24,000 nucleotides of DNA, from positions 1,218,770-1,242,769 of the forward strand of contig NZ_CP038865.1 in the NCBI RefSeq assembly GCF_004792515.1, given 5' to 3'. The stretch comes from Vagococcus xieshaowenii (GTDB taxonomy: Bacteria; Bacillota; Bacilli; Lactobacillales; Vagococcaceae). Under the pieces are notes generated by a model, which searched no databases, was not told the origin of the DNA, and saw only the letters and a list, made by a program, of their open reading frames with translations. A program made the position numbers and the translations under genes. Shown here one piece after another: positions 1 through 18,543 of this stretch. How positions within the stretch are numbered: the first letter of the stretch is position 1; each line of letters opens with the position of its first letter.

Positions 1-2105
1 CCGCTAGTATTCTTTATTTCATAAGAAGCTGTTTCTGTATTTTTAAAATTATTCTTAACTTTTTCAAAAAAAGCATCCCACGACTCTTCAAAAAAATCTG
101 TTCTTACATGGTTTTCGTTTAAATTAACTCGATTTAAAAATTCAGTGAAAATGCCTGGTCTAATTCTATACTGCATTTTTTGTTCTTCATCAATTATTAA
201 TTTTGCACCGCCAACAAAATCATCGTAAGCATAATCTTGATGAAATTGAATAAATTCAAATTGGTCATGATTATTTAACTCCTCAATTGAAATACCAATC
301 ATTTCAGAGGCTATTTTTTTTGCTAAATAAGTTTTTCCAACACCACTAGGACCTGTTAGAATAATATTTTTTGAAACAAAAGTTTTTTCTATATATTCGA
401 GTATTCCTTCTTTTTCTTCTAAAGAATCATTTATTTTAAGCGATTCATTCTCAGGTAAAACTTCTTGCTCATTAATATCAACATGACTTTTGCCATTATT
501 TAATTTTTCCAAGATACTAAATAATTTTTCATAAGAATAACTATTTCCTAATGCTATCTTGTTCGATGATACATGCCATACACTATCATAAATCCCCCTC
601 ATTGAAGCAATTGATTTTTTTTCTAAAAAATTACCAATTGACTGTTTGGGATGGCTTGTCGACAGAAGAACAAAGTTTTTTTGATACAGTGTTGCTTGCG
701 AATCATAATACAAGAAAACATCTCCAAACTTTATAAAGGGAAATTCTACTAAATTATGACCATCCATAAATTCCCTAGTTAGTTCAATATCCGATAAAAG
801 AGTTTCTCTCTTGCTCTCAATCAATTTAAAATAATTTTCACGTCCTATATTATTCGCTATTATTTGACTTCTAGCATCTTCAATTGCTGTTAAAAATTCA
901 TCAAGATATATTTTAAATTTATTAATGGATGCTTCTCTTGAATTCATTATGATTTCTTCATTTAATTCCTTTGTTACTTCATGATTAATTAATGTTTTAG
1001 AAGCTTTTGCAGATTGGACAGGTTGTTTCTTTATAAGATTACTAGATGCTTTCTTTAATCCGGTTCTATAAATTAAAGGTAAACATAAGAAAAAATTATC
1101 CGACCAGCCATATTGTTTATACTTTGTAAAAACATCAATAATTAATTTATCTTCATCAAGCTTTACTTTTTTCATTTTAAAAAAAGATTTCACGCGAGTC
1201 ACGACATCTTTTTCTTTTTTTATATTCCAGCCATCTAAATTTCTAGCTAGGCGTTCAAAATATTGAGGCGTGTATTTTAGTTCAATATGTGCTTCAATTT
1301 CCTTTCTTGTGATTTTGTTTTGTTTCAACTGCTGTTTAAAATCATCTTCTGGTTCAAATAGAACCAGTTCCATATTATCTTTGGTATCAAGCATAAACGA
1401 TTCAAAAACGTTTCTATATGGATTTAAATTTGGACTGTATTCCATCAAATGCAAATCTACTTTTCTTATTTCTTGTAAAATTGCTTGATAATCTGCTGTA
1501 AAAATCGGAAAATTTGTCCGTTTAAATTCAGAGAATCTTATTCCTAATGTCTTATTCAATTTAACTGGTTCATTGTATGAATTATTTCGATATAAAGCAA
1601 AATTATATTTTTTCCATAAATCTTCAGGAAATTCGTATTTTCTGTCTTTTAACCAAAGTAATTCATCCATTGAAACATCTATTCTATTAATTCCTCTTTT
1701 TATTTCATCAGCAACCTTTTGTGAAATATTAAGATGATCCTTAAAGTGAGTAATTCCAAGACCCATTTTTTGATTAGATTTAGTTGATTTAATTACGTAT
1801 TGATACTTTAATGGATAACCACATTTGCACCGTAAATTCTTGCTTACCTTCTTTTGATAATTCCAATCTACCTCTAATCTATCAAATTCCCATTCTGTAT
1901 TTTCCAAATACCTTTTCGTAGAAAAAACAGAACGTAATCGATATTTTTTTTGATCATTAACTAGTTGTTTCTCATTCTTAGTTAATTTATTGTATAAAGA
2001 ATCTCGCTCCTCTTTTAGATAATGTTTTGTACATTCTTTTGGATAATACTTTAAACCATAAGTATTTGGATACCATTTATCAAATAATTGTAAATAATTA
2101 ATCAT
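1..2105 (-). CDS. McrB-like AAA+ NTPase (McrBC / type IV restriction-family motor) with a long unrecognised N-terminal region; partial, C-terminus lies beyond position 1
   Basis: This ORF is absent from the ORF track because it has no in-window stop. Reading the reverse complement from ATG 2105-2103 (SD GAGAGGGA at 2111-2118) gives 701 uninterrupted codons down to position 3 (MINYLQLFDKWYPNTYGLKYYPKECTKHYL...). Walker A NIILTGPSGVGKTYLAKK is encoded around 330-353, with the Gly at about residue 585. It is followed by FEFIQFHQDYAYDDFVGG (core at 216-245) and YRIRPGIFTEF (about 147-161), which resemble the McrB hallmark FHQSYSYEDF...G.F. As a consistency check, a stop in this frame would have produced a listed minus-strand ORF starting at 2105, and none is listed. 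Confidence 0.8.
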   Translation of the reverse strand, partial: MINYLQLFDKWYPNTYGLKYYPKECTKHYLKEERDSLYNKLTKNEKQLVNDQKKYRLRSVFSTKRYLENTEWEFDRLEVDWNYQKKVSKNLRCKCGYPLKYQYVIKSTKSNQKMGLGITHFKDHLNISQKVADEIKRGINRIDVSMDELLWLKDRKYEFPEDLWKKYNFALYRNNSYNEPVKLNKTLGIRFSEFKRTNFPIFTADYQAILQEIRKVDLHLMEYSPNLNPYRNVFESFMLDTKDNMELVLFEPEDDFKQQLKQNKITRKEIEAHIELKYTPQYFERLARNLDGWNIKKEKDVVTRVKSFFKMKKVKLDEDKLIIDVFTKYKQYGWSDNFFLCLPLIYRTGLKKASSNLIKKQPVQSAKASKTLINHEVTKELNEEIIMNSREASINKFKIYLDEFLTAIEDARSQIIANNIGRENYFKLIESKRETLLSDIELTREFMDGHNLVEFPFIKFGDVFLYYDSQATLYQKNFVLLSTSHPKQSIGNFLEKKSIASMRGIYDSVWHVSSNKIALGNSYSYEKLFSILEKLNNGKSHVDINEQEVLPENESLKINDSLEEKEGILEYIEKTFVSKNIILTGPSGVGKTYLAKKIASEMIGISIEELNNHDQFEFIQFHQDYAYDDFVGGAKLIIDEEQKMQYRIRPGIFTEFLNRVNLNENHVRTDFFEESWDAFFEKVKNNFKNTETASYEIKNTS

Positions 2106-2141
2106 TATACTCCCTCTCAAAAAACAATTGTTATTATATTG

Positions 2142-2170
2142 ATTATCATACATTATTATTTGACTAGCAA
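2142..2170 (-). promoter_or_regulatory. Candidate sigma-A promoter for the McrB-like gene
   Basis: On the minus strand, TTGCTA (2170-2165) is followed by a 17-nt spacer and GATAAT (2147-2142). A perfect 10-bp palindrome AACAATTGTT (2123-2132) lies between this -10 and the SD and could be an operator. The call rests on motifs only. Confidence 0.35.
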
Positions 2171-2247
2171 CGATAAAATAGGAACGATTAAATTTAAAAT
2201 ACTCAAGACTGTATTTTTAATGGCATTTCAAAAACATGTGATTGTAG

Positions 2248-2326
2248 CTCAAACGTATCCAAAACCATTTGACGAAGAGACAAAAAAAAACTCTAAACGT
2301 TCATTTAACAACGTTTAGAGCGTATA
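2248..2326. repeat. Left copy of an imperfect direct repeat of about 75-85 bp (includes a terminator hairpin)
   Basis: Three colinear perfect blocks are shared with 17055-17142. They are cgtatccaaa (2254-2263 and 17073-17082), caaaaaaaa (2281-2289 and 17094-17102) and atttaacaacgttta (2303-2317 and 17119-17133). The offsets are 14819, 14813 and 14816. The last block extends to 21 of 23 matches. Confidence 0.5.
2282..2320 (-). terminator. Rho-independent terminator ending the yhf-like operon
   Basis: There is a perfect 11-bp stem, ctctaaacgtt (2291-2301) with aacgtttagag (2310-2320), and an 8-nt loop. The A9 run at 2282-2290 becomes a U9 tail on the minus-strand transcript. Confidence 0.8.
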
Positions 2327-2552
2327 TATAGAAAATAGCCCACGCTACCTTCCAATGAAAACTTGGAAGATAATTAACTAATAAAGACAATAATATCAGC
2401 ACTCTCTGATTAGAAAATACTGATACTATTGCTACATGATATTGCTTGATAGCAATCAAAACGTACCCAAAAACGAATCCAATTTTGCAGGTAGAGAAGT
2501 TGTTTGAATCCTTTTTAATATTTATATAAAACATAATTTTAGCTAACTAATT

Positions 2553-3590
2553 TTATATACCTCTTTCAAAATAGTTTTTTAAATTTCCAAAATAACTTTC
2601 AATCAATCCATCTTCATTTATTTGAAATTTATTAGCTATTTCAAATATTTTTTGGATATTCTCTATATTGTTTTTAGCCATTATAACATATCCAGTACTT
2701 AGCTCATTAGTTGGTACTGTCAAAACAATAACATTAAGCATATTTGCTACACGAATGTAACCTTTATTTGCAAGTTTTTGTTTTTCTTTTGTTTCATTGT
2801 CGAAATGTCCATAAATTGTATCACCAAGTCCATTAAGATCAACTGGTCCTTCTTTAGAAATCACAATATCGTAATCAGATAAATAAGAATCTAACTCTTC
2901 AATCAAGTCTTTTCTAGAATATTTATATTTATTATTCATATTCTTTTTTTCTATCTTATAATTACTTTTTTGCATGAATTTTTCATCCAGCTGTTCATCC
3001 ATTAATACGGTTATCGAATTATGTAATTTTGATTGAAAAGATTCAATCTCCAATAATCCACTAACTAATTTTTCAATATGAAATAATTCTCTTGAAATTA
3101 ACCCAATTGAAGGAGCAAATACAATCCCATCTGTTGAAATTTTTTTCTCGTAAAGAAAACTTGGATCTTTACCTATGGTTGGGTGAATAAAACCAAATAA
3201 ATTTAAACTCATAGCAGGGGCAAGTACAGAGCCTCCACCATCCGTACCCACTCCTACATCATTAATTCTCAAAAATACGTTTATTGCTGTACCACTTGAA
3301 GAACCCGTCATTGGTTTACCTGTAATTGGATTTTTCAAATCAATATCTATAGCTCTTCCTGAATGACTAGCTTTATCCACTGTATGATGAAAATAATTTA
3401 ACGTTTCCATTTTTTTAATCAAGTCATTAGAAATAAGACTTACATTCTTAGTGCCAAAATAATACCCGTTACTGTCACTAATATTATCAATAGAATTAGG
3501 GTAAGTTTTAATTACTGATTTGTATGGATTACTTATTGCAACAAATGTTTTTTTAGCGTATTCTTTAATACGATTATTTCTCCTCTTCAT
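2553..3590 (-). CDS. Short divergent amidase-signature (AS) family protein
   Basis: NPITGKPMTGSSSGTAINV...GVGTDGGGSVLAPAMSL aligns with the AS core NP...GGSSGGSAAAVA...LGTDTGGSIRIPA. The start was re-called to ATG 3590 (residue 12 of the track ORF) because GGAGG lies 4 nt upstream, whereas the track TTG at 3623 has no SD. The protein is 345 aa, compared with about 450-500 aa for typical AS amidases. It is the last gene of the operon. Confidence 0.7.
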   Translation of the reverse strand: MKRRNNRIKEYAKKTFVAISNPYKSVIKTYPNSIDNISDSNGYYFGTKNVSLISNDLIKKMETLNYFHHTVDKASHSGRAIDIDLKNPITGKPMTGSSSGTAINVFLRINDVGVGTDGGGSVLAPAMSLNLFGFIHPTIGKDPSFLYEKKISTDGIVFAPSIGLISRELFHIEKLVSGLLEIESFQSKLHNSITVLMDEQLDEKFMQKSNYKIEKKNMNNKYKYSRKDLIEELDSYLSDYDIVISKEGPVDLNGLGDTIYGHFDNETKEKQKLANKGYIRVANMLNVIVLTVPTNELSTGYVIMAKNNIENIQKIFEIANKFQINEDGLIESYFGNLKNYFERGI

Positions 3591-3624
3591 AATTCCTCCA
3601 AAAAAAGCCTGGATATTATCCAAG

Positions 3625-4839
3625 CTAATTATTTATTATATTTTTAAGAAAAGAATGACCATTTTGCGGCGATGATACACCAAAGAATTCTGAGACTGTG
3701 GCACCAACGTCAGCTAAAGTTAATCGTTCACCAATCATTCTCCCTTGAACTCCTGGACTATAAATCAATAACGGAACGCGTTCCCTTGTATGATTACTAT
3801 GTCCGATTGTTGGGTCATTTCCATGATCAGCCATTACAATTAATATATCACCTTTATTTAATAATGGTAATAATTCTCCTATTCGTTTGTCACTAAGCTC
3901 TAGACGATCTGAATATCTACTAACATCTTCAGCATGCCCCGCTAAATCTGTTTCCTGAATATTAAGAGCAATAAAACCTGTTTCGATAGATTCAATTTCT
4001 GAAATCAAACAATCAAAAAGATATTCTGAGTCAACTCCTGGAAATAGTCGCTTACTATCCGTTTGAATAATATCAGCAATTTTACCTAAGAAAGAAACAG
4101 TAATCCCAGCTTTGTCAAGAATTGTAGGTGTTTGAACATTTTTCTCAATACCGTAACCTAAATGAACTACCTGATATCCATGATTGTAGACGCCAGATTC
4201 TGGTGCATCTACTCCTGCTATCTCATTATTTTTTGTTTTTCTAGCAGCTAAAATATCATCTAACGTGATTTGTTCTCCTCCAAAGGTAATCACTCGAGAT
4301 ACTTCTACAACTTCACGAACTGCATATCCAATTTTTTTTAACTCTTCAAAACTCACTAAATCTAAGCTAGCAGTTACATTATACACCTGACCATAATCTG
4401 TTTCTAAATTGTCACCAACTGTAGCATATTCATTGACAACTAGTATTTCAGTTCCTTTATCTCCAACACGTCTTACTTTATAACCATGCTTGTGTAAATT
4501 TTCTTCAACAATATCTATTTTTTGATTGAAAGGTTGAATTAAAGGAACTTTCGGCGTAGTCCCCATTATTTCTTGATGCCCTAAAAAAGAATCTGCTCCA
4601 TGATGTGCAAGGTTAGAAGTTCCATAATTAGAGGTTGTGCTGAAATGATGTTTACCGATTTCATATCCCAATGCATTCATCAATCCTAATTTTTCAAGAA
4701 CAGGTAGCTGAATTTCAATATTTTGTTCAATAATGTGACCAGCAGTACTACTTCCAATATCTTGAGGCCTTACTTCGATACAATCATTCATTGCACCTAC
4801 CCCAAAACTATCCAAAACTATTACGATAAATCTACTCAT
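3625..4839 (-). CDS. yhfW: Phosphopentomutase-like metalloenzyme (YhfW family)
   Basis: The sequence MSRFIVIVLDSFGVGAM...ADHGNDPT...HT.E.VPLL is typical of the DeoB/alkaline-phosphatase superfamily. The SD GAAGGTGA overlaps the upstream stop. Its position in the yhf-type cluster supports the call. Confidence 0.85.
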   Translation of the reverse strand: MSRFIVIVLDSFGVGAMNDCIEVRPQDIGSSTAGHIIEQNIEIQLPVLEKLGLMNALGYEIGKHHFSTTSNYGTSNLAHHGADSFLGHQEIMGTTPKVPLIQPFNQKIDIVEENLHKHGYKVRRVGDKGTEILVVNEYATVGDNLETDYGQVYNVTASLDLVSFEELKKIGYAVREVVEVSRVITFGGEQITLDDILAARKTKNNEIAGVDAPESGVYNHGYQVVHLGYGIEKNVQTPTILDKAGITVSFLGKIADIIQTDSKRLFPGVDSEYLFDCLISEIESIETGFIALNIQETDLAGHAEDVSRYSDRLELSDKRIGELLPLLNKGDILIVMADHGNDPTIGHSNHTRERVPLLIYSPGVQGRMIGERLTLADVGATVSEFFGVSSPQNGHSFLKNIINN

Positions 4840-4843
4840 TTTA

Positions 4844-6001
4844 TCACCTTCTAATTAAATTCCCTAAACTGTTATATATTCCTTCAAGTTTTGGAGTTCC
4901 CGAGCTGATACCTGATACAACCGCTACATCACTTCTAGTGACGAACACTTGCGTTCTAAATGCCGCGATGACCGTAGAACCAACTGGATGAACTTTATTG
5001 CTTTCTAAATAATAATCAATACTTTCATTTCCAAATGGTGCTACTGTATCCTTGGAATAATTTTCATCTTTATCAATTACTAAAATATTTTCAAGATGCC
5101 CTCTTCGGTAATACCCTCCTCCATAAAAATATGAATGACCATCTAAAGAATGTGAGATTTCACTGACGTATACCATACTTGGTAATTCTTCTAAATCTAA
5201 TTTTGCATGAAGAGGCGTAGTACCTGTTAAAGCATGACCCGGCTCTCCCTGTGTTCCTTGTATTCCCTTGATTAGTGGAATTGTAGTACAACAAGTAGCT
5301 GAAGGAATATTTAGTTCTTGAACTTCGATGCCATGTTTCTTAAATATATTTCTAGCTGTATTAATAGTTTTCACATTATTTGTGGGCTTCAACTCTTTTT
5401 CACCATCAAATAAAAAACAAGGAAAAGAGGTAATACCAGCTATTTTAATATTATCTAACTTCTTAGCTATAGCTATTAATTCTTCTAAGTCCTCTAAATG
5501 ATAGCCACCAAACTGTCCTTCATATATTTCATCTGTAGGCTCAACAACTTTGATTAATACTTGTTGTACTTTATTTAATTTTTGAGCAACAGTATTTATA
5601 TTGTTCAACATTTCATTAGAAAATACAGTTATAAATTTGGGTCCATACGCAATTATTCTCTCTAACATGTTTTTGGGTACTTGAACTAGATGACCTACAT
5701 TACCTATGGGCAAATTATGTTCCATCATTATCAGCGCTTCTTTAAAATCAACGACCACCGCATGACTGATACCCGCTTCAACAATTTTCCGAGATACTAA
5801 TGGGTTTCTCCCAAACTGTTTCGTCATATAAAAAAGTTCTAATTTATACTTGTCTGCTTTTTCCTTCATCACCTTAGCATTGTGAGTAATCATATCTAAA
5901 TCTAACACGTACGTATCTGGTAAGATTAATCCTTGTTTATGTAGTTGAGACGCTGCCTCAATAAGTTTGGGATTCCTACGTTTAGTCAGTTCTAAAAACA
6001 T
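4844..6001 (-). CDS. yhfX: Alanine-racemase-N-terminal-fold PLP barrel protein (YhfX family)
   Basis: The N-terminus MFLELTKRRNPKLIEAASQLHKQGLILPDTYVLDLD and the 385-aa length fit my recollection of E. coli YhfX. The SD AAGGAGG is followed by 5 nt (ATTAA), which contains the yhfY stop TAA, and then the ATG. The cluster context also supports the call. Confidence 0.8.
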   Translation of the reverse strand: MFLELTKRRNPKLIEAASQLHKQGLILPDTYVLDLDMITHNAKVMKEKADKYKLELFYMTKQFGRNPLVSRKIVEAGISHAVVVDFKEALIMMEHNLPIGNVGHLVQVPKNMLERIIAYGPKFITVFSNEMLNNINTVAQKLNKVQQVLIKVVEPTDEIYEGQFGGYHLEDLEELIAIAKKLDNIKIAGITSFPCFLFDGEKELKPTNNVKTINTARNIFKKHGIEVQELNIPSATCCTTIPLIKGIQGTQGEPGHALTGTTPLHAKLDLEELPSMVYVSEISHSLDGHSYFYGGGYYRRGHLENILVIDKDENYSKDTVAPFGNESIDYYLESNKVHPVGSTVIAAFRTQVFVTRSDVAVVSGISSGTPKLEGIYNSLGNLIRR

Positions 6002-6002
6002 A

Positions 6003-6353
6003 TTAATCCTCCTTAAGAATATTAATAATATGTAAGTAGAAATAATCTAATTCCGATTCTTCAAATTCATTTCCATTAATCTTTTCTAATTCTGACCAAA
6101 TAACTTTTGCTTTTTCATATTTTGGATTCATCATAATATCGGAAATAATAAACTCATCTAAACTAGCAACAGCTTCATTTTTAACCCGTCTAGCATCTGC
6201 CATCGCCAAATGTGTTAAAAAAACTTCAGCCTCTGCAGATTCTTTAATAATCTCTTTATTCAATAAATATTCTAAAACTTCTAAGGAATAATCTTGTGTC
6301 TCTTTGCTAATAACGTCTGTACTAACTAAAATTTCTAGTTTCTGTTTAATCAT
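6003..6353 (-). CDS. yhfY: Stand-alone PRD-domain protein (YhfY family)
   Basis: The protein is 116 aa and carries the PRD-type motif FLTHLAMADARR with a conserved His. It has no RNA- or DNA-binding domain. The SD is AAGGAG. Confidence 0.8.
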   Translation of the reverse strand: MIKQKLEILVSTDVISKETQDYSLEVLEYLLNKEIIKESAEAEVFLTHLAMADARRVKNEAVASLDEFIISDIMMNPKYEKAKVIWSELEKINGNEFEESELDYFYLHIINILKED

Positions 6354-6364
6354 TGTGCACTCCT

Positions 6365-7288
6365 TTAATATCTGGGAATAATTTCTCCATCTTTCACTTG
6401 CTTTTGTATTTTCAATACATTTTCTTTATCAAATATTTTATTGAAAAAAGCTTGCATTGATTTATCTTCTTCATGACAAATAATCACAGAAGTATTCAAA
6501 TCTGTTTCAATAAGCGTGTTCTTCAACATTACTGCCTTGAGTTCATGGAGATTTTTATCCTTTATCTCGTCATAATTCCAAATCCCTGCATCAATAATTC
6601 CTTCTTTTAATGAATAGATAATTTGATGTCCTGGCATTTCAATCAATTCAACCTGTTTGTTTACTATATTTTCTTGTGTCAATAACTGCTGATCTAACGA
6701 ACTATAATCAATTGCAATACGCATACTATCTTCAATTGTTTCTTTCGTGGAATCAGAAAACAAAAGAACATGCTGACTAAGATAAGTTTTTTCACCAAAG
6801 TCAACCGTTATACAAACTGGTTCACCTTGGTTAATCGCTTGATTGGCAGCAAATTTTGAGACTACAGCAAAGCGATAAGTTTTCATTAATATTGAACGTA
6901 CCCTTTCCTTTGACCCTCTAATATAAGCAAGATTTAACTTTGAATTATGTTTACTAAATTCATCATAAATACCAGTGGCTAAACCTTCATACAATTTAGA
7001 GTAAGGTAATGTCATAGTTCCTAAAATAGATTCAGAAAGAGCATATTCTTGCAAAATAGGATAATTAATTTCTTCGATAAAAGTACCAAGATGCCCTCTG
7101 CTAACCAAAGCAATCGCTTTTTCATCTTTTAAATACTTAATTGCAGTTTGAATAGTTCCTCTTGCCACACCATAATGTTCTTGAAATTCCGAAATACTTG
7201 GCATTCTATCCCCTTTTTTTAATTGTAGAAAATCTGAAGCAAGTTGATTTATAATTATGCCTTTTTTTGTTAAGAACTTATTGCCCAT
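6365..7288 (-). CDS. yhfZ: GntR-type wHTH regulator with YhfZ-type C-terminal domain
   Basis: The N-terminal sequence MPSISEFQEHYGVARGTIQTAIKYLKDEKAIALVSRGHLGTFI is a GntR-like wHTH. The 307-aa length and cluster context match YhfZ. Confidence 0.8.
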   Translation of the reverse strand: MGNKFLTKKGIIINQLASDFLQLKKGDRMPSISEFQEHYGVARGTIQTAIKYLKDEKAIALVSRGHLGTFIEEINYPILQEYALSESILGTMTLPYSKLYEGLATGIYDEFSKHNSKLNLAYIRGSKERVRSILMKTYRFAVVSKFAANQAINQGEPVCITVDFGEKTYLSQHVLLFSDSTKETIEDSMRIAIDYSSLDQQLLTQENIVNKQVELIEMPGHQIIYSLKEGIIDAGIWNYDEIKDKNLHELKAVMLKNTLIETDLNTSVIICHEEDKSMQAFFNKIFDKENVLKIQKQVKDGEIIPRY

Positions 7289-7302
7289 TTGATCCCTCTT
7301 CT

Positions 7303-8394
7303 CTATACAATACTCATTGCTTTCTTAAGTATTCGAATAATTGTATCCACACCAGCTCTATTTGGGTTAATCCGAATCATTGAGTCCTCAGCTAGAGGAT
7401 TTGCTGAACGGAATGTTCCCGATACTCGATAGACTAACGGCGCAAATTCATACTTTGATTCTGCACCCACCGGATGAGGAAGTGCTCCTAAAGTTGTTGC
7501 TGCTTCAATAATTTTTTTGGCGTTGTTTTCTTTTAAATTGATAACTACAACTTTTGATTGAGCATTAACAACAAAGGCACTTTCTAATCCAGGGACTTCT
7601 CCTTTATTAATTCTATCACATAATTCTTCACTAACCTTTGAAGAAATAGCTAATGAAACCGGTGCGTAAATAAGCCCTTTTAACACATCTAAAGCCTCAT
7701 GACCTTGTACCTGACCACCACCAGAGTAATTTTCTTGTTTTAGTTTATCAAGATAAATTTTATCGCCTACAATACATCCAATGCCTTCAGGACCTAACAA
7801 CTTAAATGTTGAAAAACAGGCTAAATTGCCTCCTAATTGACTACCAATTCCTTTAGTTTTTAAAGCAGAGTAATTATCATCTGTCACAATAGGAATTGTT
7901 TTATCGACAGATTTGATAGTTCCTATAAGTTCTTCTAAATCATAAAAATCATCAATTTTTTGACGAGTCACTTGAATCAACACACCGTCAATCTCATGTT
8001 TATTCAGACATTGCTTCACTTCACTTAAATCATTAAAGTTAGCCTCAATCGTATTAATGCCTAACATATCAATAGATACTTTAGTGGTTGGATAAATTGG
8101 TGCTTGGTGAACCAATATCGTTTTACCAGTTCCAACGGCACTATGTAAAGCTAATCTAATTGCATTAGTACCAGATCCACGTACCAATAATGCTGATTCA
8201 CAACCGAAAAAGTGAGCTAAAGTCTCTTCAGTTTTTTTAGTAGTTATTGGTTGATTTAAACCTTTAACTACACCTAAATCACCCCGTGTTAGAATTTCAT
8301 TTCCAGGAAAAAACCTAGTTATTGAATCTACCAGTTTAAACTGTAAATTAGTCGCTTCCTCTAAAGTTAAACTTTTCAATGGATACGTATTCAT
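7303..8394 (-). CDS. yhfS: PLP-dependent fold-type I enzyme (YhfS family)
   Basis: The protein is 363 aa. FSTFKLLGPEGIG contains the candidate PLP lysine. The C-terminal GAESKYEFAPLVYRVSGTF...IRINPNR, the length and the gene order all fit YhfS. Confidence 0.8.
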   Translation of the reverse strand: MNTYPLKSLTLEEATNLQFKLVDSITRFFPGNEILTRGDLGVVKGLNQPITTKKTEETLAHFFGCESALLVRGSGTNAIRLALHSAVGTGKTILVHQAPIYPTTKVSIDMLGINTIEANFNDLSEVKQCLNKHEIDGVLIQVTRQKIDDFYDLEELIGTIKSVDKTIPIVTDDNYSALKTKGIGSQLGGNLACFSTFKLLGPEGIGCIVGDKIYLDKLKQENYSGGGQVQGHEALDVLKGLIYAPVSLAISSKVSEELCDRINKGEVPGLESAFVVNAQSKVVVINLKENNAKKIIEAATTLGALPHPVGAESKYEFAPLVYRVSGTFRSANPLAEDSMIRINPNRAGVDTIIRILKKAMSIV

Positions 8395-8397
8395 TTT

Positions 8398-9279
8398 TTA
8401 ACCTCTATTCATAAATTCTATTGGATTATCTTCCAGCATTTTATTAATAAACGATTCTGAAACACCTGTTTCTAATGCCAATGGCACAAATGTATCTAAC
8501 AAGTAAGAATAGCCAATGCCACCCATATACTCTAAATTTGACTTTCTTGTTATATCCATTGAAAGAAATACTTTATCAGTAAAGCCTCTTTTTTCAATTT
8601 CTAGTAACATTTCAGTTCTCAATTTGTCTGGTTGATAATTTTCTTTACCAATTGTGTCAAACTCAACATAGACACCTTGATCCAGCATATGTAGAATATA
8701 GTCAATATCACCTGTTAAATCTACATGTCCAATAACTACTTTTGACAACTCAACCTGATGATTTTTGAAAAACTCAACCTGCTCATGTCCATAAGTTCCA
8801 AGAGTCGTGTGAGTAGTAATTGGTACCCCAGTTTCTTTATGAGCTAACACGGATGCTGAAAACACCTTACGTTCATTTTCAGTCATGACGTTCTTACTTG
8901 TCCCAATTTCACCAATAATTTGAGCTCTAATATTTGTATCAGCAATTCCACAATTAATTTCTTTTACCATAAAATCAGAAAGGTCTTTAATGGAATAATC
9001 AGTTACAAAATCTGGTAAAAACTTATCTTGATAAAAACCTGTTGCTTGAACGATATTCATACCAGTTTCTTTTGCTACTCGTTCTACATATTGAGGATTT
9101 CTTCTCATATCCATATTGGTAACATCAACAATATTACGTACACCTTTAGAATACAATTTTTTGTATTCTTTTACAGTTTCTTCATAACAATTTAAATTAG
9201 TATCATCAATATTTTTTAATCGAGATAAATCGATAGTGGTATGTTCATGCATGTATGTTATGCCTTTTTTTAGTACCAT
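8398..9279 (-). CDS. php: Phosphotriesterase-homology protein (Php, amidohydrolase superfamily TIM barrel)
   Basis: GITYMHEHTTIDLS carries the HxH metal motif, and later His and Asp ligands are present (GHVD, SMDITR). The start was re-called to ATG 9279 because AAGGAG lies 9 nt upstream. The track TTG at 9303 would overlap yhfT. The result is 293 aa. Confidence 0.85.
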   Translation of the reverse strand: MVLKKGITYMHEHTTIDLSRLKNIDDTNLNCYEETVKEYKKLYSKGVRNIVDVTNMDMRRNPQYVERVAKETGMNIVQATGFYQDKFLPDFVTDYSIKDLSDFMVKEINCGIADTNIRAQIIGEIGTSKNVMTENERKVFSASVLAHKETGVPITTHTTLGTYGHEQVEFFKNHQVELSKVVIGHVDLTGDIDYILHMLDQGVYVEFDTIGKENYQPDKLRTEMLLEIEKRGFTDKVFLSMDITRKSNLEYMGGIGYSYLLDTFVPLALETGVSESFINKMLEDNPIEFMNRG

Positions 9280-9292
9280 GTAATTACACTCC

Positions 9293-10609
9293 TTATCCAC
9301 CAACTACTGGGGTAAATAAACCAATCAAGTTTAATATATTTACAATAATACCCAAAGTAATTGCAGCAATAGGTCCCACTGCTAAATCAACAACTGGTTT
9401 TTTAGCTTTTCTATTTAGCAACAGTAACCCAATAACCCAGAAATAACCAATTCCCGGTGCAATCGACTCTGAAGCCATTGCGCCACCAATTAATAAAGCA
9501 ACTTCTAAAACTTTATTCATAGAGGTTCTTATATGTTCTCCCATTTCTCTAATACCTGGGAATTTATCCAATGCTTTTGCCATCAATGATAACAGTTGAA
9601 CTTCAATAAACATTGCTAACGCACCCACTATAAAGGCTAAAATCGGATTATCTTTTAATAAAATACCAATTACAAAAACAAACGTTGTACCAGCTGGGCT
9701 ATACACACCTGTAACAATAGCTGTTGAAAATACTAAAGGAATAAATCCAATTCCACGAGCAAAAGCCGCTAATGCAGCCTCACTGTATTTACCTTCAGAT
9801 AACAAGTTAAGAGAAATAGGATCCCCTGCAATAATTAATAGACTAGATGCTGCCGAAACCAGTCCACCCATCAATGATAACCAAATCCAATTACGTTTAA
9901 TTCTATTAACACGTTCTAAGAATACACTTACTAAACTTTCATTTGAATTACTACCATCACCTTTTACTTTAATAGCATAGTAGATCATGAAAATCATTCC
10001 AACGAGTAATGACATTCCTTCTGCACTTAAAGTTAAAGACGCACCATTTGCAAGATTAAATGTACCATATTGCTTAACAGCAAATAATGTTAACAATGTG
10101 GCAATAAATGAAATTGCACCTTTCTTAAAGCCGTGTTGACTAGCTACCGCTACCGCTGGAAAAATACTAAAAGAAATGACTACTGGTGATCCAACTTGAG
10201 ATAATGAATCAATAAAGTTTACTGGCATTTTAGCAAATAAATCAACAACTGCTTGTAAACCAAGTACTAAAGCTACACCATAGATAGCACCTACAATCCC
10301 CGATATCACTAATCCCTTTTTACCTTCTGGAGCCCATGAACCAATAATATCCGTCATCAACAAGACACTATGAACTAATAGGATTGAAGCACCAATTGAA
10401 ACAGGAATACCAAAACCAATTACTAAACCAAAACTTAGTGCAAAACTTGTTGCTGCTAATTCTTTCTTACCAATCTTTTTTTCTAAAAATTCAGGAACAA
10501 TCGGTCTTAAGCCATCATTAAAAACGGCAATACCCTTGTTCGCTAATATCGAACTCATACCACCTAAGAGTGCAATGGCGATTAACTCAATAATTTTCGT
10601 AGACGTCAT
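9293..10609 (-). CDS. yhfT: Polytopic membrane protein (YhfT family), putative transporter
   Basis: The protein is highly hydrophobic with many predicted TM helices and is about 438 aa, which fits YhfT. The start was re-called to ATG 10609 (SD AGGTGA 5 nt upstream) instead of GTG 10618. Confidence 0.8.
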   Translation of the reverse strand: MTSTKIIELIAIALLGGMSSILANKGIAVFNDGLRPIVPEFLEKKIGKKELAATSFALSFGLVIGFGIPVSIGASILLVHSVLLMTDIIGSWAPEGKKGLVISGIVGAIYGVALVLGLQAVVDLFAKMPVNFIDSLSQVGSPVVISFSIFPAVAVASQHGFKKGAISFIATLLTLFAVKQYGTFNLANGASLTLSAEGMSLLVGMIFMIYYAIKVKGDGSNSNESLVSVFLERVNRIKRNWIWLSLMGGLVSAASSLLIIAGDPISLNLLSEGKYSEAALAAFARGIGFIPLVFSTAIVTGVYSPAGTTFVFVIGILLKDNPILAFIVGALAMFIEVQLLSLMAKALDKFPGIREMGEHIRTSMNKVLEVALLIGGAMASESIAPGIGYFWVIGLLLLNRKAKKPVVDLAVGPIAAITLGIIVNILNLIGLFTPVVGG

Positions 10610-10631
10610 TTGTTTCACCTATTCCTTATTT

Positions 10632-10991
10632 TTATTTACCAAGCTCATCAATAATGATTGGTATAACGATATCTTTATGTTGCGCAGTAAAACCAAATGC
10701 TCTTTTTCCAGATTTGATTTGAGCTCTAATATCATCTTCAGACATCACATTTCCTGGCATTGAAACAGTTACACAATTATCATGTCCTAGCAATGCTAAC
10801 GCCATGGCTAAGGCACCACCACCACCTGTATTACAAGCACCTAAATAATAGTCAGCTTGACCATTTTTTACTGCCATGGCCGCGTCAAGATCACTTTTAA
10901 CTTCGATTTCAAATCTTCCTTCAGAATATTTTTCAACAAGATTTTTTACCTCTTCTTTATCGATTTGACCACCAATTACAATTTTCTTCAT
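10632..10991 (-). CDS. yhfU: DUF2620 protein (YhfU family)
   Basis: The sequence is MKKIVIGGQIDKEE...YYLGACNTGGGGALAMALALLG. The start was re-called to ATG 10991 (SD AAGAAAGAGGGA 8 nt upstream). The 20-codon extension in the track has no SD. The result is 119 aa, and it is the first gene of the operon. Confidence 0.8.
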   Translation of the reverse strand: MKKIVIGGQIDKEEVKNLVEKYSEGRFEIEVKSDLDAAMAVKNGQADYYLGACNTGGGGALAMALALLGHDNCVTVSMPGNVMSEDDIRAQIKSGKRAFGFTAQHKDIVIPIIIDELGK

Positions 10992-11060
10992 AAATAATCC
11001 CTCTTTCTTAATATACATTTTTTTGTACATTGATGTTTGAAATAACATCATTACACGTTC

Positions 11061-11088
11061 ATTATATCAATATTTTATTTTTTTGCAA
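11061..11088 (-). promoter_or_regulatory. Sigma-A promoter of the yhf-like operon
   Basis: On the minus strand, TTGCAA (11088-11083) is followed by a 16-nt spacer and an extended -10, TGATATAAT (hexamer 11066-11061). It lies about 60-70 nt upstream of ATG 10991. Confidence 0.55.
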
Positions 11089-11204
11089 GCCTTTTCAAAA
11101 GAAACTATTGTAATAATAAATAATTTACTAATAGTAGAATTAACCTATAATTTTTATTGTAGCATTAATCTAAAACGTAACTAATTACAATTAATCAATA
11201 ATAA

Positions 11205-11242
11205 ATAGCCAATAACATTGAAGTAATAATGTTTTTGGCTAT
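11205..11242 (-). terminator. Probable terminator of the bgl/M20 operon
   Basis: A 15-bp stem with one mismatch pairs atagccaataacatt (11205-11219) with aatgtttttggctat (11228-11242) around an 8-nt loop. On the minus strand it is followed by the T-rich TTATTATTGATT, which is not a clean U-tract. Confidence 0.55.
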
Positions 11243-11360
11243 AGTAAAATTAAACCATACTGTCTTTCATTGAAGTATTAGTAAAGATGTTATTTGAAAT
11301 AATAAGATTAATATGTCTATTAAAATCAAATTCATATGAAGATTATATAATTTATATATT

Positions 11361-12545
11361 TTAATCAACTTTTTCCATTAATTTTAAAACTATCTCGCCT
11401 ATCACTTGAGATATTAATAAAAGACTACCTTCATCAATATTAAATTTGGGATGATGGTGAGGATAGCCAATTTCATTTTCTGGCTTGGCTCCAACTAGCA
11501 AGAAACAACTCGGGGCAATTGTTCGATAGTAACAAAAATCTTCCGAAGCAGTAACTCTATAATCAGTCAATATATTAATGTGATTTGATATATTAATGTC
11601 TCTTATTATGTTAGTGACATCACTCATTTTTATTGGATCGTTATATACCTCTTCATAATCATGATTATAATCAAGTTCAAATTCAATATCAAACATTATC
11701 GAAATACCTTTTAATATTCGAACAAATTCTTCTTTAATTTTTTTGCTTGTAGCGCTATTAAAAGTTCGAATATCACCACAAATTTTGACAGTTTCTTGAA
11801 TCACATTAAAACTTCCAGAGCCTTCTACACTTCCAATTGTTAATGTTGCAGGTTCCAAAGGGTCAACTCTTCTACTAATAATTGATTGAACAGCTGTCTG
11901 AAAAAAAGCAACTGCCAAATTAGTATCTTTTGCTAAATGAGGAGCACTTCCATGACCTCCGCACCCTTTAAAGAGAACACTAAAATGATCACGTCTAGTC
12001 ATTATACTACCTGGAGTACATGAAATAGTGCCTAATGGTAATAAACTCCACAAATGTGCTCCAATAAAAAAATCCACATCGTCAACTAGCCCTGAATTAA
12101 TAATTGATTGTGCACCGCCCGGTGGTATTTCTTCAGCTGCTTGATGAATAATTTTAATTGTTCCATTCCACTTATCTTTATAAGTAATTAGTGCTTCTGC
12201 TAGCACCATTAAGTACGCGGTATGGCCATCATGACCACACGCATGCATTACTCCATTATTTTTTGATGAAAAGGATAATCCTGTTTCTTCTAGTATAGCT
12301 AGCGCATCAAAATCTGCTCTAATTCCAATAACATTTCCTGGTTTTTGTCCATTTATTGTTACTACAATCCCGTTACTATTCGGATCCTTTTCAACTAAAC
12401 AATCTTTGGTCGAATAATAATCATAAATATAATTAGATGTTTGAAATTCATTAAATGATAGTTCTGGATTTTCATGTAAATAGCGTCTAATAGAAATCAT
12501 TTTTTTCTCATTATCTTCAAGAAATTTATTAATGTAGTTATTCAT
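11361..12545 (-). CDS. M20D-family amidohydrolase (N-acyl-amino-acid amidohydrolase / hippurate hydrolase type)
   Basis: The MHACGHDGHTA metal-binding motif, the 394-aa length and the N-terminal RRYLHENPELSF are all typical of M20D (the YxeP, AmhX and ILR1 group). AGGAGG lies 5 nt before the ATG. The gap after the bglA stop is only 20 nt and contains no hairpin, so the genes are co-transcribed. Confidence 0.85.
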   Translation of the reverse strand: MNNYINKFLEDNEKKMISIRRYLHENPELSFNEFQTSNYIYDYYSTKDCLVEKDPNSNGIVVTINGQKPGNVIGIRADFDALAILEETGLSFSSKNNGVMHACGHDGHTAYLMVLAEALITYKDKWNGTIKIIHQAAEEIPPGGAQSIINSGLVDDVDFFIGAHLWSLLPLGTISCTPGSIMTRRDHFSVLFKGCGGHGSAPHLAKDTNLAVAFFQTAVQSIISRRVDPLEPATLTIGSVEGSGSFNVIQETVKICGDIRTFNSATSKKIKEEFVRILKGISIMFDIEFELDYNHDYEEVYNDPIKMSDVTNIIRDINISNHINILTDYRVTASEDFCYYRTIAPSCFLLVGAKPENEIGYPHHHPKFNIDEGSLLLISQVIGEIVLKLMEKVD

Positions 12546-12565
12546 ACAGCCTCCTACTTTCTGTA

Positions 12566-15869
<3,304 letters not shown>

Positions 15870-15874
15870 ATTCA

Positions 15875-16708
15875 TTACTCCTTATCTAATATTCTTTGAA
15901 CATGCAGTGTTAAATATATTTTTTCATCTTGATTTGCTTTATATGAATATTCCTCTTCTATAAATTTGGATATTTTTTCTACACAAGAGTATGCTTCTTT
16001 GTATTTTTCTTGAATTACTTCTGCCAAATCATTAAATTTTTCAGTTGATTCTTCACTATTCATTACTCGGATTGTAAAAAATTTCAGGTGTGTAATAAAT
16101 CTTTGATAATATATTGAATTTTCATCATAGTTTAATTCAAAATGGTATTTGATAATATTTAATATTGCATTCATCAGCCTCGTGGATTTATGAACATTAT
16201 AAAAATCCAAACTTGTAGTTGCTGTAATTATATGCCAAGTAATAAAACCTGCTTCATCTTCATTAAAATCACATTCTAGAGTAGCATTAACTAAATCTAA
16301 AATATCCAATGCAATACTAAACTCTTTTTGATAAAAATTTTTAATTTCGAATAACATCGGATTGTCGATCAATAGATTAATTTCTTTCCTTTTAAGTAAC
16401 ATTGTTAAATGGTCTGATAATGTCACATATAATGTATCACTAACTTCAAGTCCATAACTACCTCTTAATAACGAGACTATATTATCAACCAAATCAAATA
16501 TTTCTAATGGAACGTCTACCAAGATATGTTGTAGTTTGTTTCTGATTTCATCATTATCAATAGTAAATTTTTTTTCTGCTTTTTCGATATCAACAGGATC
16601 TCCAACTTTTCTCTCCCAACCAATTCCAACTCCTGTATAAATCACCTCATTTCCTAATTCATCAATAGTTACAACCGCATTATTATTTAGCTTCTTTTTG
16701 ATTCTCAT
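15875..16708 (-). CDS. licT: BglG/LicT-family transcriptional antiterminator (CAT + 2 PRD)
   Basis: The N-terminus MRIKKKLNNNAVVT...GVGIGW is a CAT RNA-binding domain, and the 277-aa length with two PRD-like halves fits the family. The SD is AAAGGAGG. A RAT element lies upstream. Confidence 0.9.
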   Translation of the reverse strand: MRIKKKLNNNAVVTIDELGNEVIYTGVGIGWERKVGDPVDIEKAEKKFTIDNDEIRNKLQHILVDVPLEIFDLVDNIVSLLRGSYGLEVSDTLYVTLSDHLTMLLKRKEINLLIDNPMLFEIKNFYQKEFSIALDILDLVNATLECDFNEDEAGFITWHIITATTSLDFYNVHKSTRLMNAILNIIKYHFELNYDENSIYYQRFITHLKFFTIRVMNSEESTEKFNDLAEVIQEKYKEAYSCVEKISKFIEEEYSYKANQDEKIYLTLHVQRILDKE

Positions 16709-16722
16709 GATAACCTCCTTTC

Positions 16723-16790
16723 AAAAAAAAGAGACCTATCTAGAAAAAAGCACACAAAGAAATCTTGTGTTGCTCTTATCTAAATAGGTC
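16723..16790 (-). terminator. Conditional (antiterminator-controlled) leader terminator of the bgl operon
   Basis: On the minus strand, GGACCTATTTAGA...TCTAGATAGGTCTC forms a long hairpin with an inner CACAAGA/TTTGTG stem, followed by T8 (the A-run at 16723-16730 on the plus strand). Its 5' arm overlaps the 3' end of the RAT. Confidence 0.8.
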
Positions 16791-16816
16791 CAGCTTGCAT
16801 TTGCAATTACTATCCT
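16782..16816 (-). promoter_or_regulatory. RAT (ribonucleic antiterminator) element, LicT/BglG binding site
   Basis: The minus-strand sequence is AGGATAGTAATTGCAAATGCAAGCTGGACCTATTT. The B. subtilis RAT pattern is GGATTGTTACTGC-loop-GCAGGCAAAACCTAAA. The two share the GGAT.GT.A.TGC / GCA.GC...ACCTA architecture and the overlap with the terminator. Confidence 0.8.
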
Positions 16817-16859
16817 ACAAAAAGATAATGATATTTAATATTTATTATTTATATAAATC

Positions 16860-16888
16860 ATTATAACGGGTATTTTTAAGAAAGTAAA
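16860..16888 (-). promoter_or_regulatory. Sigma-A promoter of the bgl operon
   Basis: On the minus strand, TTTACT (16888-16883) is followed by a 17-nt spacer and a perfect TATAAT (16865-16860). The RAT begins about 35-40 nt downstream of the predicted start. Confidence 0.6.
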
Positions 16889-17054
16889 CAGATTGTTTAA
16901 AAACTAATGGGTTATTTGATCTGAAGATTCGATTGTTAAATTAGAAATTGTGTGAGTAATAATCGATTTTTAATCTATAATAAATAAACTCTTACACCCT
17001 TAGAATTTATAATACTAGCTATTAATGGACACACCCTATATTAAAAATATATAA

Positions 17055-17142
17055 CTCAAATGTATCAAAGGGCGTATCCAAAGTAATTTTAGGCAAAAAA
17101 AATAAGCTATAAATTCTGATTTAACAACGTTTATAGCTTATT
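17055..17142. repeat. Right copy of the imperfect direct repeat (includes the sufB terminator)
   Basis: See the left copy for the shared blocks. This copy also contains a local tandem, tgtatcaaag / cgtatccaaag. Confidence 0.5.
17095..17141 (-). terminator. Rho-independent terminator of the suf operon
   Basis: A perfect 12-bp stem pairs ataagctataaa (17102-17113) with tttatagcttat (17130-17141) around a 16-nt loop. The A-run at 17095-17101 gives the U-tail on the minus strand. It starts 7 nt after the sufB stop. Confidence 0.75.
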
Positions 17143-17148
17143 TAGAAA

Positions 17149-18543
17149 TTAACCTACACTACCTTCCATCTCATATGAGATCAATCGATTTAATTCCACC
17201 GCATATTCCATCGGTAATTCTTTGGTGAATGGTTCAACGAATCCCATGACAATCATCTCGGTTGCTTGTTCTTCTGATAAACCTCGGCTCATCAAGTAGT
17301 ACAATTGTTCTTCAGAGATTTTTGAGACTTTCGCTTCATGTTCTAAAGCGACTTGGCTGTTATGAATTTCATTAAATGGAATCGTATCTGATTTCGATAA
17401 GTTATCCATGATAATCGTATCACATTCGATATGTGAGATTGATCCTTGGCTTTCTTTACCAAATGTTACTTGTCCACGGTAGTTTACTTCCCCACCGCCA
17501 CGTGCGATTGATTTAGAAACAATCGAACTAGACGTATTTGGTGCGTTATGAATCATTTTAGCACCAGTATCTTGGATTTGTCCTTTATTCGCAAAGGCCA
17601 CTGTTAACATCGTACCACGAGCCCCACGGCCATTAAGTTGAACACTTGGGTATTTCATTGTTGTTTTGGCACCAATGTTACCATCAATCCATTCAACTGT
17701 TGCGTTTTCCATTGCACGCGCACGTTTTGTAACTAAGTTGTAGACGTTATCTGACCAGTTTTGAATCGTTGTGTAACGACAATAAGCGTCTTTCAACGTA
17801 AAGATTTCAACAATCGCCGCATGTAAACTATTCGTTGAATAGGTAGGTGCCGTACAGCCTTCTACATAATGCACACTTGCGCCCTCATCAACGATAATTA
17901 ATGTACGTTCAAATTGTCCCATGTTTTCGTCGTTAATACGGAAGTAAGTTTGTAATGGTACTTCCACTTTAACGCCTTTAGGTACATAGATAAAGGTTCC
18001 ACCTGACCATACAGCTGAATTAAGTGCTGCTAGTTTATTATCCGTTGGCGGAACTAATTTTGAGAAGTATTCTTTGAATAAATCTGGATATTCTTTTAAC
18101 GCTGAATCTGTGTCTGTAAATACTACACCCATCTTCTCAAATTCTTCTTTCATATTGTGGTATACCACTTCTGATTCATACTGCGCTGAAGCACCTGACA
18201 AATACTTTTGTTCAGCTTCTGGAATCCCTAAACGCTCGAAGGTTTCTTTTATTTTTTCTGGAACATCTTCCCAATCACGCGCTGGATTGTTACTTGATTT
18301 TTTGTAATAGGTAATCGCATCAAAGTCGATATCTGATAAATCAGGTCCCCACTCTTGCATCGCCATGTTATTAAATGCTTCTAATGAACGTAAACGGAAA
18401 TCAAGCATCCATTCTGGCTCATTTTTAACACGTGAAATTTCACGTACAATTTCTTCACTTAGTCCTTTACCTGTTGTATAGACAGGTTTGACATCATCAC
18501 GAAAACCAAATTGGTAATCGCCAACTACAGGTACATCCGTCAT
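17149..18543 (-). CDS. sufB: Fe-S cluster assembly scaffold protein SufB
   Basis: The sequence [22 protein letters not shown]...[10 protein letters not shown]... is strongly SufB-like. The start was re-called to ATG 18543 (SD GAAGGAGTG 7 nt upstream and overlapping the sufU stop) instead of the track start at 18567. Confidence 0.95.

Follow-up and report, generated by a model that had tools for sequence, protein, structure and literature searches.

A Vagococcus xieshaowenii gene for an McrB-derived AAA+ protein, possibly an orphaned or repurposed restriction subunit

The left edge of a 24,000-nucleotide stretch of Vagococcus xieshaowenii DNA (contig NZ_CP038865.1, positions 1,218,770 to 1,242,769; hereafter the window) cuts through a minus-strand gene for a large protein with a motor of the McrB type. 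McrB is defined by its MNxxDRS loop and by its dependence on McrC. The original prediction, made from the letters of the window, took this gene to be the first of a candidate defence system, undescribed and either type IV-like or McrBC-derived. Does the gene encode the motor of a restriction system, or a derivative that has left this mode of action? The evidence favours an orphaned or repurposed McrB subunit over a new complete system. The explanation that we prefer, with about even confidence, is that the gene encodes an McrB-derived AAA+ protein that no longer works as a McrBC nuclease motor. Gene fusion would have produced this McrB derivative, which appears to be without McrC and impaired in hydrolysis, in other words an orphaned or repurposed restriction subunit. 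Its role may lie in defence, in an exapted cellular function as with the cell-division protein PcdA, or nowhere at all.

The reading frame runs from an ATG at window position 2105 down to position 1 and comprises 701 codons without a stop, as had been read from the sequence. These are codons 1 to 701 of a 957-codon gene (window 1-2105, minus strand). The final 256 codons lie outside the window, and the whole gene occupies positions 10001-12874 of a draft contig (L001). The gene had been thought to be missing from the annotation; public records do hold its full product, a 957-residue 'AAA family ATPase' of V. xieshaowenii (WP_167790858.1, designated P0001), and a 973-residue annotation variant starting at an ATG further upstream (QCA28868.1, TFZ43285.1; P0245, complete genome). 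A random open reading frame (ORF) at this base composition (27% G+C) is expected to reach about 10 codons. The 957-codon frame contains no stop, versus 89 and 136 stops in the other two forward frames of the gene, which is therefore real. The gene was found in three of three V. xieshaowenii assemblies, where its sequence is identical and its frame intact. The start at position 2105 is supported by stand-alone paralogues of the N-terminal part of the protein, which start at the same MxNYL, and a putative ribosome-binding site, GAGGGAG (window 2110-2116, minus strand), lies 4 nucleotides upstream of the ATG. The protein has three parts, formed by residues 1-415, 416-565, and 566-957. In this fused form it is a singleton confined to one species: scanning a collection of genome contigs, to which V. 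xieshaowenii itself does not belong, with P0001 gave no match.

The C-terminal part is an McrB-family AAA+ domain, in agreement with the motor type first assigned to it. A phmmer comparison with PDB sequences retrieved Escherichia coli McrB (E 8e-23) in two stretches, residues 506-656 and 771-911. The NCBIfam McrB model PRK11331 matched with an E value of 9e-13, but at 48 bits versus a cut-off of 637 bits. In the AlphaFold2 (AF2) model of residues 416-957, the AAA+ core has a predicted local distance difference test score (pLDDT) of 70-85. With this model as query, Foldseek ranked the McrB proteins of T. gammatolerans and E. coli first (E 3e-16 to 1e-13) and BsuMI YdiS next, with MoxR proteins and dynein far behind.

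The window contains the first half of the large AAA+ subdomain (residues 566-656, window 138-410, minus strand), delimited by sequence and fold comparison. The motifs that had been reported there are all present: the Walker A motif GPSGVGKT at residues 585-592 (window 330-353, minus strand), FHQDYAYDDFVGG at residues 621-633, and RPGIF at residues 649-653. The QFHQDYAYDDF block is located at window 216-248 (minus strand). Past the window edge lie the Walker B motif VIDEID (residues 783-788, with D785 and E786), MSSINNS (841-847), FRKF (855-858), and the lid. Assignment of the lid is based on a weak precomputed match to PF28529 (McrB_lid), on AF2 helices at residues 880-957 (pLDDT 73-87), and on alignment with the nearest AAA+ relatives, P0004 from a metagenome and P0074, a 'McrB family protein' of Flammeovirga. 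In total, the motor keeps Walker A, QFHxxYxYxDF, the DE pair of Walker B, FGEL, IIGxM, and the lid in common with E. coli and T. gammatolerans McrB, which belong to the H2-insert clade of AAA+ proteins, and it has the same overall plan, in which the AAA+ domain comes after a variable N-terminal region.

After RPGIF the sequence departs from canonical McrB because of an insertion of about 115 residues (657-770), as this departure had hinted. The McrB homology stops at the insertion and restarts at the Walker B motif in the alignment. The start of the insertion, residues 657-701, occupies window 1-137 (minus strand). In P0004 and P0074 (27-29% identity), too, GIFxEF is followed by an insertion at this point, and both have YIIGTM and HIGxxYFLK...LLW in common with the protein. 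According to a census of McrBC systems, insertions in the GTPase domain are frequent among them (PMC11090510).

The catalytic and coupling residues were compared with a reference set of 75 alignment columns that are invariant across four diverse McrB homologues. The protein keeps 53 of these columns and has lost 22. Alignment with the same four homologues revealed that, among the lost columns, DEINR is replaced by DEIDQ (N788D and R789Q), MNxxDRS by MSSINNS at residues 841-847 (N842S, D845N, and R846N), and RRR by FRK at residues 855-857 (R855F and R857K). No N...D pair was found in any register of the consensus loop at 841-847, with MNxxDRS, NxD, and NxxxD variants considered. The region of the arginine pair, FRK, keeps one arginine, although the match of its three positions to R425 and R426 of T. 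gammatolerans McrB is ambiguous. In P0004 and P0074, by contrast, MNDIDRS and RRRF are intact, the N-termini are short, and an overlapping mcrC accompanies the gene.

An MNxxDRS motif in place of sensor I has been stated for all McrB homologues (Niu et al., 2020, PMC7680126; PMC11090510). Niu et al. (2020, PMC7680126) report that E. coli McrB loses its GTPase activity when N333A or D336N is introduced, and that McrC stimulates hydrolysis through a hydrogen-bond network formed by N282, N333, and D336. The equivalent positions are D, S, and N in the Vagococcus protein, the last being the D-to-N change itself. These substitutions predict that the motor has lost residues required for McrC-stimulated GTP hydrolysis and that hydrolysis is impaired. 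McrC would be unable to stimulate the protein because the Asn/Asn/Asp network on which it acts is gone. Nucleotide binding would be kept, and perhaps ring formation too, with weak hydrolysis that McrC could not drive. A degenerate AAA+ domain had been named at the outset as a finding that would speak against a new system; here the outcome is mixed, for the Walker B motif is there, whereas the consensus loop has degenerated, as the arginine pair probably has. The protein offers a natural McrB variant with equivalents of the inactivating D336N and N333 substitutions, in which the rest of the motor is kept and a new N-terminal domain has been added.

A nuclease subunit had been expected directly downstream. 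The downstream view extends for 373 nucleotides past the stop codon, to the end of draft contig L001. This segment has stops throughout all three forward frames and holds neither mcrC nor another gene, and the predicted impairment of hydrolysis agrees with the lack of an adjacent mcrC in the DNA seen. The segment contains the second copy of a repeat that brackets the gene, a terminator-like hairpin, and an IS200-like end. The latter was detected as a match to the Rfam family STnc490, an IS200-associated RNA, located 261 nucleotides past the stop codon (L001 13135-13246; 42 bits, E 5e-6, below the gathering score) and ending in AGGAGG at the contig end. The match likely corresponds to the left terminus of an element of the IS200/IS605 type. 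An insertion sequence (IS) at this position would explain the break of the draft contig since it would be a repeated element.

We considered whether the gene could be half of a split functional type IV system, with the nuclease encoded beyond the IS200-like element or elsewhere, and with the N-terminal domain and the middle region forming an enlarged target-recognition part. The IS-like end at the contig break could have entered between mcrB and mcrC, the frame is intact, the N-terminal domain is conserved, and Walker A, Walker B, and the lid are all present. Relatives of the N-terminal domain, described below, also adjoin mcrBC and a GIY-YIG gene (L008), a methyltransferase and an HKD/Snf2 gene (L012, L023), or ResIII and T5orf172 genes (L015). 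However, all the residues by which McrC activates McrB are substituted, a terminator-like hairpin follows the gene, and canonical mcrC overlaps mcrB in the nearest relatives, by 8-17 nucleotides in P0004 and P0074. PADLOC, in addition, returned no system-level match. We consider this arrangement quite unlikely. The protein is not assigned to a functioning McrBC, because it lacks two features generally regarded as defining, namely the consensus loop and, as far as the sequence was seen, an adjacent McrC.

A further alternative is that a former locus combining the N-terminal family, mcrB, and mcrC has lost its nuclease and that the motor is gathering inactivating substitutions in a protein without function. 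Such a decaying remnant is doubtful in our view. Seven otherwise invariant active-site residues are gone, the protein is a singleton of one species, a repeat and an IS-like end flank the gene, and both the middle region and the insertion are without relatives and have low fold confidence. Against decay stand the 957 codons without stop or frameshift in DNA of 27% G+C (89 and 136 stops in the other frames), the identical sequence in three assemblies, and the conservation of the family-invariant residues of the N-terminal domain. Moreover, the substitutions cluster in residues for hydrolysis and McrC coupling, and Walker A and the structural core are kept. Such a distribution is better explained by a functional shift than by random decay, because the changes sit in catalytic and coupling residues. 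Together, the intact frame in AT-rich DNA, the kept family residues, and the clustered substitutions make simple decay less likely.

The region preceding the motor had been described as lacking a recognisable family, and this was confirmed, since residues 1-565 are not covered by any family of Pfam, NCBIfam, PADLOC, or PHROG. It is not the single block of 580 residues that had been assumed, since residues 1-415 (window 861-2105, minus strand; delimited by the AF2 model and alignment) are a copy of a widespread stand-alone family without annotation, which we refer to as family X. This N-terminal domain is 39% identical to P0003, a stand-alone hypothetical protein of 418 residues from the same species. 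Two stand-alone paralogues, P0003 and P0002, end at the alignment column of residue ~411 of P0001. In the AF2 model (pLDDT 86.8; predicted template modelling score 0.79), the domain is mostly helical with a small three-stranded sheet, and a single long helix is present at residues 379-419.

Family X comprises at least 313 cluster representatives at E ≤ 1e-3, in a profile search of 1.84 billion representatives, and P0001 matched the profile of its relatives with an E value of 8e-209. The conserved core spans residues 25-225 (profile ~27-215; window 1431-2033, minus strand; profile and BLASTP). Within the core, C93, C95, and P200 are invariant, and R34, W72, G117, D147, and L150 are nearly so. 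P0001 keeps every family-invariant residue of the domain except for Q45, which is replaced by E. The residues C93-x-C95...H120-x3-H124 form a putative metal site (window 1734-1829, minus strand). Of 100 family members, all have both cysteines; at position 120, 88 carry H and 12 carry C, and 73 have H124. This conserved Cys/His pattern suggests a metal site, with zinc as the probable metal.

No structure or family model in the libraries searched corresponded to the domain. Foldseek searches with the domain found no match in PDB (best E 0.88) or BFVD (best E 4e-3, template modelling score 0.16), and a comparison of its profile with PDB sequences also gave no match. Among the family-X members scanned, no Pfam, PHROG, or PADLOC model lay over the domain region. 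Two candidate relationships were rejected. The Pfam model DUF3895 (PF13034, 77 positions) covers a different, C-terminal part of the Bacillus relatives; neither P0001 nor P0003 matched it, even when the threshold was relaxed to E 0.1 over the first 420 residues. Likewise, the domain is without similarity to the first 50 kb of pXO2, which disposes of pXO2-34.

The middle region (residues 416-565; window 411-860, minus strand) is an orphan. Its AF2 pLDDT is below 50, no relative was found among 245 proteins and all loci analyzed, and no match was obtained in Pfam or PDB. Homology to the N-terminal domain of E. coli McrB was rejected, since it is the AAA+ match that runs on into the stretch aligned with McrB residues 117-180. 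The N-terminal domain ends at the C-terminus of the stand-alone paralogues, and the protein therefore looks like the product of a read-through fusion with a complete mcrB, the middle region being probably the original N-terminal domain, of about 150 residues, of that mcrB.

In the scenario that we propose, a family-X gene would have been fused by read-through to a complete mcrB, whose own N-terminal domain would have become the middle region. The product would still bind nucleotide and would probably oligomerise, with poor hydrolysis of GTP or ATP and no possible stimulation by McrC. Its role, if any, would be that of a nucleotide-dependent binding or scaffold protein rather than of a translocase-nuclease, and the N-terminal module, which probably contains zinc, would bind nucleic acid or a partner.

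A gene-neighbourhood counterpart of this fusion was found. In L008 (positions 1929-7652), and also in L009 and L010, mcrB is followed by an overlapping mcrC, by the gene for P0082, a family-X protein of 525 residues, and by a gene for a LEM-3-like GIY-YIG protein. P0082 thus follows a canonical mcrB-mcrC pair and precedes the GIY-YIG gene in three contigs. The mcrB product of L008 consists of DUF8425, AAA_5, and the lid, and its MNTADRS and RRRF motifs are intact.

Several points weigh against an orphaned or repurposed McrB subunit with a nucleic-acid-binding N-terminus. The protein is a singleton of one species. Mutants of E. coli and T. gammatolerans McrB are the basis for the predicted loss of hydrolysis, and the retention of Walker A, of the Walker B DE pair, and of one arginine makes a slow NTPase activity, or one of altered specificity, possible. 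It is also possible that mcrC or another nuclease gene is located beyond the IS-like element, past the 373 nucleotides seen. Binding of zinc and nucleic acid by the N-terminal domain is suggested by the conserved Cys/His residues and by gene contexts. Finally, it is in the long multidomain members and in P0082 that family X shows a link to DNA motors; the closest stand-alone relatives of the domain lack it.

These gene contexts were obtained from plasmids and metagenomes. Plasmid records with a family-X relative numbered 116, including 76 from Bacillus and 31 from Ligilactobacillus salivarius megaplasmids. The Bacillus plasmid relatives are annotated as 'DUF3895 domain-containing', the DUF3895 model covering their C-terminal 77 residues. 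Residues 25-150 of P0001 align with the N-terminal part of these proteins (BLASTP, 7e-19). For the Bacillus and Paenibacillus proteins of this type, such as those of pHT77 (WP_000226086.1) and pBMB8240, the homology covers the N-terminal ~135 residues, including CxCG...KYQY and HFxxH, and their C-terminal 77 residues are absent from P0001.

In the L. salivarius megaplasmids (L012 positions 1-10804; L023, which is pIBB3154_1, positions 40854-50381; 31 records with a relative), the gene order is DNA methyltransferase, HKD/Snf2 (DEAD/DEAH) helicase, a family-X protein of 1066-1068 residues, and a second family-X protein. The 1066-1068-residue protein carries the CxC...HxxxH domain at its N-terminus, and no PADLOC model matched the domain proteins of this locus, which is possibly an undescribed defence system. 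A five-gene locus with 92-98% identity across several metagenomes (L015 positions 1-8993; also L068, L070, L071, and L072) encodes a ResIII/DEAD helicase, a T5orf172/MUG113 protein, two CxC...HxxxH proteins of 1099 and 810 residues, and a protein of 187 residues. The four non-helicase proteins of L015 had no significant PADLOC match, the best being that of T5orf172 to PDC-S57 (E 1.5e-5). Elsewhere, a family-X member of 1472 residues follows an SNF2 helicase, and in the 8.2-kb plasmid pBMB8240 a member is encoded directly downstream of a gene for a Rep_ORF2-G2P and SF1 helicase protein. In pBMB8240 (L020 positions 173-1192), the tblastn match of the N-terminal domain spans the gap between two annotated coding sequences, for a hypothetical protein of 65 residues and a 'DUF3895' protein of 216 residues. 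The two are probably one gene split by the annotation or by a frameshift.

The gene contexts suggest that the domain is a module associated with nucleic acids or motors. We therefore weighed a broader explanation, that the CxC...HxxxH domain is a widespread nucleic-acid-recognition module coupled to NTP-driven motors in mobile and defence loci of Firmicutes, and that the fused protein is a McrC-independent sensor or blocker, made of one polypeptide, with a hydrolysis-dead McrB ring. The motors observed beside the domain are McrBC, HKD/Snf2 with a methyltransferase (L. salivarius megaplasmids), ResIII with T5orf172, and the Rep-SF1 helicase (small Bacillus plasmids). We rate this explanation as rather unlikely. 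If it were true, the multigene loci with tandem copies of the domain would be undescribed defence systems. A general tie between family X and defence genes was rejected: among 58 metagenomic loci, none contained McrB or McrC within 7 kb, the helicase/T5orf172 locus accounted for only 4-5, and the closest relatives have housekeeping neighbours.

The latter observation bears on a last alternative. The closest stand-alone relatives of the N-terminal domain are chromosomal genes with variable housekeeping neighbours. P0003 is encoded in a core region (L002 positions 10001-11257), flanked by a DUF1002 gene and a cold-shock gene, and the same context is found in the metagenomic contig L004. The AAA+ ring could then have been exapted as an oligomerisation or switch platform for a housekeeping family-X domain in Lactobacillales. 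PcdA provides a precedent, being a Staphylococcus aureus cell-division protein, derived from McrB, that is McrC-less, has degenerate motifs, and has lost one arginine of two (PMC10602043). The degeneracy of the motor is of the same kind, with loss of arginine and catalytic residues. Recruitment of this type is nevertheless quite unlikely. The gene sits at the end of an accessory block of low G+C content at third codon positions (GC3), with an IS-like element beside it, and its restriction to a single species does not resemble that of a core function taken on by recruitment. Recent local duplication of P0003 does not account for the fused copy because their GC3 values differ (0.27 for P0003, 0.19 for the fused copy).

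The likeness between PcdA and the Vagococcus protein is one of kind: both are McrB-family proteins of Firmicutes with degenerate motifs and without McrC. PcdA has features of its own, including two EVE domains, a degraded Walker A motif, loss of the Walker B glutamate, and loss of the C-terminal helical bundle. In contrast, Walker A, the DE pair of Walker B, and the lid are all retained in the protein described here, and its N-terminus is unrelated; no match to an EVE domain was detected in P0001. If orphaned or repurposed, the V. xieshaowenii protein would join PcdA as a possible second instance of such a diversion of restriction motors in Firmicutes.

Other McrB-containing systems differ as well. 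Compared with E. coli and T. gammatolerans McrB, the protein has MSSINNS, DEIDQ, and FRK, an extra N-terminal domain of 415 residues, and the 115-residue insertion, with no adjacent mcrC seen. In the three-gene McrBC systems LlaI and BsuMI (bioRxiv 10.64898/2026.08.31.748284), a separate recognition subunit, the DNA-binding R1, accompanies an McrB motor, an arrangement comparable to P0082 beside mcrBC in L008-L010. LlaI.R1 has a two-domain fold of which the first domain is ERCC4-like (bioRxiv 10.64898/2026.08.31.748284), whereas the family-X domain is mostly helical, carries CxC...HxxxH, and has no Foldseek match; the gene order differs too. Assignment to CoCoNuT or to the NxD-type McrB proteins was rejected on the grounds that the protein has no NxD motif, no extended coiled coil (a single long helix at 379-419), and no adjacent nuclease in 373 nucleotides.

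The domain family is the more general lead, with at least 313 clusters, a confidently predicted fold, no database model, and no match in two structure libraries. Its characterisation would give an annotation to numerous genes now listed as 'hypothetical', and new defence modules might come to light. The uncharacterised family and its multigene loci are more promising leads than the gene itself.

The leader of the McrB-like gene had been credited with a palindrome and a candidate promoter. The palindrome, AACAATTGTT, is present at window 2123-2132 (minus strand). Promoter-like sites numbered 23, versus 24 expected from shuffling; they provide no evidence for a promoter because their number does not exceed the shuffled expectation.

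The neighbourhood had been described as an accessory block. This held for base composition, not for the presence of defence genes. Upstream of the gene, and in the same orientation, is a yhfS-X-type metabolic operon (window 2553-11051), followed by a bgl-type phosphotransferase system (PTS)/beta-glucosidase operon and then by the suf operon. None of these yhf, bgl, and suf neighbours is a defence gene. The GC3 is 0.18 for the gene (0.19 for the fused copy), 0.17-0.24 for the block at window ~1-16.7 kb, and 0.27-0.34 for the suf genes; the core genes flanking the paralogue in L002 have values of 0.21-0.33. The compositional step is located at ~16700-17150, with the McrB-like gene, yhf, an M20 peptidase, and bgl/PTS on the left (0.17-0.24) and suf onward on the right (0.27-0.34). 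The left block of low GC3 may have been acquired horizontally.

The yhf operon encodes DUF2620, YhfT, a protein of the phosphotriesterase family, a YhfS-like aminotransferase, a YhfZ regulator, a PRD protein, and YhfX. It also includes a metalloenzyme/phosphopentomutase-like protein and a divergent amidase-signature protein, whose only recognisable relative in the genome collection comes from a Holdemania metagenome-assembled genome. A terminator-like hairpin with a T-run marks the end of this operon (window 2280-2321, minus strand). Because this hairpin closes the upstream operon, the McrB-like gene forms a separate transcription unit.

A 116-nucleotide direct repeat brackets the gene. The upstream copy is at window 2337-2452 (minus strand) and the second copy, 85% identical, begins 67 nucleotides after the stop codon (L001 12941-13056, outside the window). 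Within each copy there are two hairpins, one of 20 bp and one short, and a terminator-like hairpin follows. No further copies were found in the window or in other Vagococcus loci, and the repeat had no Rfam match. The two copies may mark the boundaries of an inserted cassette. An ORF of 77 residues at window 2301-2534 (minus strand) was dismissed as a gene because it is the translated repeat and terminator region, and the downstream repeat copy yields a similar spurious ORF.

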